Shown: piece by piece, positions 4,184 through 5,025 of the stretch
Layout: every line of letters starts with the position of its first letter
Numbering within the stretch: the stretch's first letter is position 1
Assembly: GCA_002011035.2 (NCBI GenBank)
Contig: MTLY02000003.1
Location: 224,001 to 288,000 of the forward strand
Length of the DNA stretch: 64,000 bases
Origin: Candidatus Hecatella orcuttiae
Lineage (GTDB): Archaea > Thermoproteota > Bathyarchaeia > Hecatellales > Hecatellaceae
Direction of reading: 5' to 3'
Notes under the pieces: model-generated
Databases searched by the model: none
What the model was told of the DNA's origin: nothing
The model's input: only the letters and a program-made list of their open reading frames with translations
Translations under genes and position numbers: made by a program

Positions 4184-4343
4184 AAAAAAGACAAATCCCC
4201 TAGAAAAAGTCCATTTTAAGCCTTTTTCACAGCATGTTTAGCCCTCTTTTTCTAAATGTTCATCGTATGAATTTCCAACATAGAAAACTGACGCTGGCCC
4301 TTCCGCGCTTGGAACTCCTTTTCTCGGAAAGACGTAAAAATGG

Positions 4344-4548
4344 TGGTCCCGCGGGTCGGATTTTCATGGGTGGCTCCCAATTTGAACTCGCCGAGGTGAA
4401 GGGTCGTCCTTCGCCTCCCCGACGACACTCCGGTTTCTGTGCGCCTGAAAGGCTGGCAGGCCTATCCAGAGGATAAACCCTACAGCATCTCCTCTTCAAG
4501 GCTTTCGCCGTGAAGATCGGAAGCTCTTCCAGGCTGAGCTACCGCGGG
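4344..4548 (-). tRNA. tRNA-Tyr(GTA) with four BHB introns (4487-4517, 4435-4479, 4387-4418, 4361-4380); CCA encoded
   Basis: Removing the four introns gives a perfect 77-nt cloverleaf: CCCGCGG TA GCTC AGCCTGGAA GAGC T TCCGG CT GTA GA CCGGA GTGTC GTCGG TTCAAAT CCGAC CCGCGGG A CCA. Each junction forms a 4-bp helix with 3-nt bulges. BRE/TATA-like AAAAGCTTATAA lies upstream. Confidence 0.93.
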
Positions 4549-4591
4549 ACAAGATCAGCAAACAGCCGGTAAACTTATAAGCTTTTAGCCT

Positions 4592-4822
4592 TCAGGCAGG
4601 CGAAGGGGAGCCCACCAGTTTTTCCATCAGAACGACGCAAACCCCTGCACTCGCCATCCGCTTCCTGAGCGCCGAGTCTTGAGGCAGAACCCTAAGGAGC
4701 GAATCAACCTCCCAGAGGTCCAAGGCCACAAAATATTCGGGTTTATGCCCTCTCAATCTTAGGATTTTCATATTTATGGTTGGATTATCCAACCATATAA
4801 ACCTTTCCATAACAAAACCCAA
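4592..4822 (-). CDS. Small hypothetical protein between the two tRNAs
   Basis: 76-aa ORF; no motif; start uncertain. Confidence 0.35.
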   Translation of the reverse strand: MGFVMERFIWLDNPTINMKILRLRGHKPEYFVALDLWEVDSLLRVLPQDSALRKRMASAGVCVVLMEKLVGSPSPA

Positions 4823-4879
4823 GGCAAGGCTTTTTCCCAGTAAAAATTATATGTTGCCGCTTTAACTTCTAAGGATGAC

Positions 4880-5025
4880 GCCCTGGTAGTATAGGCAGCC
4901 GTGATGCGGCTAGGGATACGCCGTATCCGGCTGGTAGAGTCCGGTCTAGTATGTGCGGCTGTTCCGTGGCTTTCCGGAGCCGAATCGCCCGTACGACCCG
5001 GGTTCAAATCCCGGCCAGGGCGCCA
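4880..5025 (+). tRNA. tRNA-Asp(GTC) with two introns (4895-4939 in the D-loop, 4962-4984 at 34/35); integration target
   Basis: Spliced: GCCCTGG TA GTAT AGTCCGGTCTA GTAT G TGCGG CT GTC GC CCGTA CGAC CCGGG TTCAAAT CCCGG CCAGGGC G CCA; the second intron has a clean BHB. Confidence 0.92.

Follow-up and report, generated by a model that had tools for sequence, protein, structure and literature searches.

The question raised by this locus is whether a 205-nt segment of the 64,000-nt window (the whole stretch of DNA that was analysed) can be one working tRNA gene when 128 of its nucleotides would have to be removed in four pieces, and how such a gene would be processed. An earlier note on this DNA had proposed a tRNA-Tyr with four bulge-helix-bulge introns at 4344–4548 and had given no strand. 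The coordinates are right and the strand is minus, with tRNA position 1 at 4548 and the last A of an encoded CCA at 4344. The evidence set out below makes it very probable that this is a single, functional, four-intron tRNA-Tyr(GUA) gene of a Bathyarchaeia-labelled archaeon, spliced by an EndA pair and RtcB.

The intron positions and lengths given in that note are exact by three routes, the cloverleaf, a motif test and a combinatorial solver, with introns of 31, 45, 32 and 20 nt making up the intronic total (Table 1). The positions follow standard tRNA numbering, and because there is one extra nucleotide in the D loop the cuts fall after precursor bases 31, 69, 130 and 168. Reading them as plain base counts was rejected, as this gives a U-C mismatch in the anticodon stem where standard numbering gives a perfect cloverleaf. 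Splicing in silico yields the predicted 77-nt product with all stems paired (acceptor 7 bp, D 4 bp, anticodon 5 bp, T 5 bp), and with 21 of 21 pairs and 12 of 12 conserved bases of the archaeal tRNA-Tyr cloverleaf. ARAGORN calls this product tRNA-Tyr(gta), and its drawing contains the GUA anticodon, a C1-G72 first pair and A73; we take C1-G72 and A73 to be the archaeal tRNA-Tyr identity elements. The gene is neither split nor permuted, the five exons being colinear on one strand within the 205 nt. Two flanking elements were recognised by eye and are included in Table 1; the reading of the upstream one as a TATA box assumes the archaeal promoter consensus.

Table 1. Features of the tRNA-Tyr(GUA) locus and contigs of other public runs that cover it (window coordinates).
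Feature	Position	Strand	Basis or remark
Whole tRNA-Tyr(GUA) gene, 205 nt, five exons, four introns, CCA encoded	4344..4548	-	ARAGORN on product, solver
Exon 1, 31 nt, positions 1-30: acceptor 5' strand, D arm, anticodon-stem 27-30	4518..4548	-	Identical or near-identical among relatives
Intron 1, 31 nt, site 30/31	4487..4517	-	Strict motif
Exon 2, 7-nt micro-exon, positions 31-37 including GUA anticodon	4480..4486	-	
Intron 2, 45 nt, canonical site 37/38	4435..4479	-	Relaxed motif
Exon 3, 16 nt, positions 38-53	4419..4434	-	
Intron 3, 32 nt, site 53/54	4387..4418	-	Relaxed motif
Exon 4, 6-nt micro-exon UUCAAA, T-loop positions 54-59	4381..4386	-	
Intron 4, 20 nt, site 59/60	4361..4380	-	Strict motif after removal of intron 3
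Exon 5, 17 nt, positions 60-73 and encoded CCA	4344..4360	-	
TTATAA about 30 nt upstream of tRNA position 1, A-rich stretch before it; likely TATA box	4575..4580	-	By eye
Five-T run immediately 3' of CCA; likely transcription stop	4339..4343	-	By eye
Run X4, record 1	4250-5025		No difference
Run X6, record 17	4250-4803		No difference
Run X7, record 25	4250-4582		No difference
Run X5, record 9	4257-4544		No difference

The splicing motifs were tested at the boundaries fixed by the cloverleaf, against the standard geometry in which each strand has a 3-nt bulge next to a central helix of 4 bp and is cut behind the second nucleotide of the bulge. All four introns have 4 of 4 central pairs and the right register, and the 4-bp helix and two 3-nt bulges are those that the earlier note had described. 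Intron 1 has the central helix CUUC/GGAG with one G-U pair, bulges CG|A and AU|G, an outer helix of 2 bp and an inner helix of 6 bp. Intron 2 has the central helix CUGU/ACAG and bulges AG|G and AA|A; its inner helix is 2 bp (G-C plus U-G), and its outer helix is 1 bp, rising to the 6 bp of the anticodon stem only with intron 1 removed. Intron 3 has CGUC/GGCG (one G-U pair), bulges GG|G and AG|U and a 4-bp inner helix, and it has no exon-side outer helix whatever the context. Intron 4 has UUCA/UGAA, bulges AA|U and AA|U and a 4-bp inner helix, and its outer helix grows from 1 bp to the 5 bp of the T stem once intron 3 is removed. A strict bulge-helix-bulge motif has been defined as one in which both outer helices have at least two Watson-Crick pairs (PMC7714728); intron 1 is strict by this definition, intron 4 becomes so after removal of intron 3, and introns 2 and 3 are relaxed. 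None of the four introns has a paralogue elsewhere in the genome or contains C/D-box motifs.

Whether such a model could arise by chance was tested with a homologue-free solver that combines strict motif candidates with a cloverleaf score. For the 202-nt precursor there are 48 candidates and 142 compatible subsets, and the four-intron model is the single best solution with 54 points, followed by a runner-up at 48. A genome-wide control used 515 seeds (7-bp terminal complementarity, U8, C61 and CCA), most of which score 39–40. Nine of them reach 54, each with a cloverleaf and a sense anticodon, and the tRNA-Tyr is the only four-intron gene among the nine; the long spurious seeds reach at most 50 and have few conserved bases. 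This census is partial, since CCA is encoded in 11 of 17 confident tRNA genes and the candidate rule misses introns shorter than about 17 nt, and of 21 multi-intron relatives there are only 2 for which the strict solver arrives at the homology-based model. One doubt at this point is that the gene has fewer introns (for example three), different boundaries or a long variable arm. The solver does return three-intron alternatives at 48 points, and a first spliced alignment was tied with one that placed the T-loop cuts elsewhere. However, the alternatives lose two or three stem pairs or alter the anticodon, and the tie, which was broken by a small bonus for 4-bp central helices, falls the same way in the homologue-free solver. 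Moreover, because some relatives are without one or more of the introns, the boundaries are defined independently of any motif (for example, there are two introns in L003, three in L002 and a single one in L006). We therefore regard a different gene model as very improbable and retain the four-intron one.

The earlier note had proposed that an intact tRNA-Tyr elsewhere in the genome, together with a lack of spliced product from this locus, would refute its reading. No other tRNA-Tyr was found by ARAGORN, RF00005 or spliced alignment. ARAGORN with introns allowed reports 40 genes in the whole genome, none of them for Tyr, and with RF00005 there are 36 matches whose E is no greater than 1, 28 of them over cut-off, with none at this locus and none Tyr-like elsewhere. 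Spliced alignment of the mature sequence with GUA forced, on both strands of the three contigs, scores 120 at the locus; the next independent match, at 64, equals the maximum on the reversed genome, and a series of scores from 106 to 60 at 300-base steps downstream are shadows that masking left of this alignment. With the assembly at 97% completeness and 4% contamination, a second tRNA-Tyr might possibly lie in a gap. The unspliced gene is missed by both ARAGORN and Rfam/Infernal, as had been anticipated, and at permissive thresholds Rfam gives only chance-level matches around the locus.

Homologous precursors are common in relatives. The precursor was matched in 36 of 41 related genomes searched, the source genome (G000) included, and a pattern of the D arm and anticodon stem is present at no fewer than 120 loci in public contigs. 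Among the matches listed, the homologue set comprises 140 loci, of which 138 have the pattern and 133 a 7-bp acceptor stem, corresponding to 125 distinct precursors; the two without the pattern (L014 and L015) have one intron each, and five loci with bad or truncated models (L023, L027, L031, L033 and L049) were left out. In these relatives the gene has between one and five introns, which occupy the sites seen here, and a near-constant mature sequence; the acceptor and T stems vary by paired substitutions. Among the matches listed, C1-G72 is kept in all 133 modelled homologues that pass the cloverleaf filter. The 125 distinct precursors among these matches have one, two, three, four and five introns in 5, 2, 5, 3 and 1 cases in the related genomes, in 8, 21, 7, 15 and 0 cases in contigs titled Bathyarchaeia or Bathyarchaeota, and in 49, 7, 0, 2 and 0 cases under other titles (mostly Nitrososphaeria); four or more introns at these sites, with a valid cloverleaf, are present in 21 of the 125 listed. 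Two public contigs (L079 and L135) have another four-intron set, at 30/31, 37/38, 44/45 and 59/60.

The motifs are conserved together with the sites. Among the matches listed, site 30/31 is filled in 59 of the 125 homologues (4 of 4 central pairs in 58 of the 59), site 37/38 in 124 (122 with 4 of 4), site 53/54 in 22 (12 with 4 of 4 and 10 with 3 of 4) and site 59/60 in 33 (27 with 4 of 4), counts that lean slightly towards the motif because the aligner favoured 4-bp central helices by a small bonus. The inner helices of introns 1, 3 and 4 are 91–100% paired at most positions (95–100% for the intron 3 pairs), with several pair types and covariation, and at many positions the pairing is above that of every one of 500 partner shuffles. 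For intron 2 the inner helix is not conserved, its pairing among the homologues listed being no better than shuffled. The canonical intron (4435–4479 and its 124 homologues) does contain a semi-conserved CAGCCU followed after a few bases by CAGGC, mostly starting 21 nt from the intron 3' end (63 of 124 by a strict pattern) and present in contigs titled Bathyarchaeia and in those titled Nitrososphaeria. A small hairpin is possible within this element, and its first half is complementary to tRNA positions 30–34.

To see how far the two T-arm introns extend we used a class-wide sample and a pattern running from exon 3 through intron 3, the UUCAAA micro-exon and intron 4 into the beginning of exon 5. 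Both introns are present in at least 55 of 401 class genomes, the source genome included, a lower bound since exact matches were needed; the reversed-pattern control gave none. Apart from the source genome, matches were found in 25 of 59 genomes of family f26, 10 of 16 of f16, 10 of 25 of f11, 2 of 104 of f8, 2 of 2 of f23, 2 of 18 of f29 and 1 of 1 of f19, and in 0 of 13 of f1, the source genome's own family. Public contigs with the four-intron layout are titled Bathyarchaeia. The 55 were modelled with an alignment query built per locus in the final models, and comprise 40 four-intron genes, 11 five-intron genes, two three-intron genes that are without intron 1, and two in which the match lies in a 5'-truncated second copy. 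The 40 four-intron genes have a perfect cloverleaf in 38 instances and one T-stem mismatch in the other two.

The fifth intron is at 9/10 and is 23–29 nt long in the 11 genes; acceptor positions 4–7 pair with its 3' end (4 of 4 pairs in 10 of the 11), and it has a covarying inner helix of 4–5 bp. The loci are L004 and L170–L179, in genomes G032, G190, G090, G172, G271, G277, G169, G238, G078, G086 and G094, and 10 of these 11 genomes belong to one family. In the two genomes with a truncated copy (L195, G312 C4:140600-141980; L196, G274), whose sequences share 95% identity in this region, a minus-strand ORF of 276 aa (L195 239..1069) with two LAGLIDADG-like motifs comes after a complete three-intron tRNA-Tyr, and the 5'-truncated second tRNA-Tyr copy with introns 3 and 4 is about 1 kb downstream. 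A homing-endonuclease or integration event may have left this arrangement behind.

The genome also encodes the enzymes that such a gene would need. There are two matches to PF01974, the EndA catalytic domain (99.1 and 81.6 bits), and one RtcB (PF01139, 589.8 bits), so that endonuclease and ligase are present together. The EndA paralogues lie at G000 C2:15570-16124 and C2:374733-375302, and RtcB in the region of C3:330994-332304. The 184-aa EndA is closest to the Aeropyrum pernix catalytic chain 3P1Z_B (E 1.2e-46) and keeps its Tyr, His and Lys positions, presumably the catalytic residues. The 189-aa paralogue has Pro aligned to the catalytic His, as would be expected of a structural subunit. 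In the crenarchaeal loop of the 184-aa protein, K40 and K42 are aligned to K44 and R46. PMC3241643 shows that the ability to cut non-canonical and relaxed motifs comes from this loop, and from K44 especially. At the level of sequence, then, a catalytic chain, a non-catalytic paralogue and a loop with two basic residues point to a two-subunit EndA of broad specificity. Introns 2 and 3 have relaxed motifs, and their removal would therefore depend on a broad-specificity enzyme such as homology suggests here.

From these components we infer a route of transcription, cleavage and ligation. One precursor of about 205 nt would be transcribed from the TATA-type promoter, and each intron would lie within a bulge-helix-bulge motif built partly of exon sequence. 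The two-subunit EndA (catalytic chain with crenarchaeal loop plus the His-less paralogue) would cut two nucleotides into each 3-nt bulge, and RtcB would join the exon ends. The central helix of intron 1 borrows tRNA positions 25–28 and the intron splits the anticodon stem; that of intron 3 borrows positions 48–51, and the intron lies between the T stem and the T loop. Because introns 1 and 3 disrupt these stems, the outer helices of introns 2 and 4 need their prior removal and rejoining. The predicted order is thus intron 1 before intron 2 and intron 3 before intron 4, which would also prevent the 7-nt and 6-nt micro-exons from escaping as free oligonucleotides. tRNAscan-SE assumes ordered intron removal for archaeal genes, according to PMC8450103.

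Folding backs an ordered route only in part. For intron 4 the central helix reaches a probability of 0.41–0.45, and its bulges an unpaired probability of 0.94, only with intron 3 gone; for intron 3 the central-helix probability is 0.01 at 37 C and 0.66 at 70 C. The motif is not favoured by folding for intron 1 (central helix 0.10–0.20) or for intron 2 (about 0 in every context).

These folding results bear on a further alternative, that the locus is a decaying pseudogene, a former tRNA-Tyr gene that has filled with insertions and gives no working tRNA. The disfavouring of two of the four motifs by folding, together with the failure of ARAGORN and Rfam/Infernal to recognise the gene, would fit such a view; among the sequencing runs found to contain this DNA, none is recorded as RNA. 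But decay is hard to reconcile with the sole tRNA-Tyr candidate of a 97%-complete genome, with the 21 stem pairs and 12 conserved bases all intact once spliced, with insertions whose places coincide exactly with possible 4-bp helices flanked by 3-nt bulges, and with introns at the same four sites in 40 of the 401 genomes sampled, the intron helices covarying. We consider a pseudogene highly unlikely, and proceed with a functional four-intron gene. That the contig is instead a chimera of several strains' tRNA-Tyr genes is scarcely credible, for while the genome was assembled from a metagenome and other tRNA-Tyr variants co-occur in some runs (with 30 replaced letters, X6 and X7), contigs of four further public runs cover the locus with zero differences (Table 1) and the same architecture is present in dozens of independent assemblies. 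A second organism in the samples of X6 and X7 has contigs that agree with this gene in exon 1 and exon 3 alone (4518–4548 and 4423–4456), with 30 other letters between them; it is a co-occurring relative, and the introns of its tRNA-Tyr form another set.

There are signs of interruption in other tRNA genes of this genome. One is a second interrupted tRNA gene at 4880–5025 on the plus strand, 331 nt from the tRNA-Tyr and divergent from it, with an intact T arm, the acceptor GCCCUGG/CCAGGGC and an encoded CCA. Its anticodon is probably GUC (Asp). ARAGORN reports it with an odd anticodon, or as Gly with a 59-nt intron when introns are allowed; the solver finds three introns (21 pairs) or two (20 pairs), the latter giving an ARAGORN call of tRNA-Asp, and a motif-free enumeration gives 55,029 near-equal models. 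A second example, outside the window, is a tRNA-Lys(UUU) (G000 C3:675973-676126) that three introns interrupt, one at 9/10, one at 37/38 and one within the variable region, the third of which was probably cut too short by the strict rule. Across the genome there are several implausible ARAGORN anticodons and only 28 RF00005 matches over cut-off, and many of its tRNA genes seem to be interrupted.

The tRNA-Tyr gene is a real, conserved and apparently undescribed example of a known mechanism, and we infer its splicing from these features; bulge-helix-bulge splicing is not itself new. On a broader scale, we think it likely that extreme fragmentation of tRNA genes has a second, undescribed centre beyond Asgard in the Bathyarchaeia, in which tRNA-Tyr keeps four introns (five in one family) at fixed sites across families and the 6- and 7-nt micro-exons survive only through a motif-enforced order. 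If true, this would be a natural test case for ordered, structure-gated tRNA splicing and for site-by-site intron gain. The nested motifs and 6–7-nt micro-exons yield a concrete, testable prediction of splicing order, and the relatives, whose introns at these sites number from one to five, are a natural series for intron gain and loss. There are also consequences for annotation in this widespread and uncultured class. With ARAGORN and Rfam/Infernal, an essential tRNA of such genomes can go unannotated, which lowers the apparent tRNA counts and quality scores of metagenome assemblies.

The earlier note had named three introns per tRNA as the usually quoted archaeal maximum, and the literature bears this out. 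A 2014 review (PMC4033280) gives 'a maximum of three introns' per archaeal tRNA gene, and the 2021 tRNAscan-SE 2.0 paper (PMC8450103) writes that tRNA genes of archaea may have as many as three. The earlier note's suggestion that four would be at or beyond the maximum holds insofar as the four here, and the five in close relatives, exceed the published three; it does not hold as a record, since five are present in those relatives and a bioRxiv preprint of October 2026 (10.64898/2026.10.13.758758) reports as many as five intervening sequences in one tRNA gene for Asgard families. A limited literature search for tRNA introns of Bathyarchaeota or Bathyarchaeia and for four- or five-intron archaeal tRNAs returned no matching description.

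Among known systems, the three-intron nuclear tRNA genes of Cyanidioschyzon merolae (PMC3728597) are alike in that a single gene is interrupted in its D stem, at 37/38 and in its T loop. This red alga is a eukaryote with three introns at most, and the evidence there is experimental: RT-PCR showed the flanking introns leaving before the canonical one, whereas here the order is predicted only. Closer to the host is the pre-tRNA-Tyr of Cenarchaeum symbiosum, from the sister class, whose canonical-site intron is in a bulge-helix-loop form cut only by a broad-specificity EndA, according to PMC3241643. Intron 2 and its 124 homologues are likewise without a conserved intron-side helix and fit that form. 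The C. symbiosum gene is described there with one intron, compared with four here.

The Thermoproteales (Pyrobaculum, Thermofilum and others; Sugahara et al. 2008, via PMC4033280 and PMC8450103) are alike in several respects. They have several short non-canonical introns per gene, each in a strict or relaxed bulge-helix-bulge motif, and neighbouring introns have to be removed in sequence (PMC8450103); a two-subunit EndA with the crenarchaeal loop is a further likeness. They belong to a different class from the host, and the maximum of three per gene given in those papers contrasts with four here and five in relatives. Intron transposition between tRNA genes is also described for them (PMC4033280), in contrast to the lack of intron paralogues here. 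Asgard archaea (the preprint above and PMC11291895) are alike in that most tRNA genes are interrupted, with multiple introns in over half of the tRNA genes of three genomes (PMC11291895), many introns are non-canonical, standard annotation misses some, and there are up to five intervening sequences per gene. They are of another phylum, and in the Bathyarchaeia it is one gene that holds the same four sites across several families.
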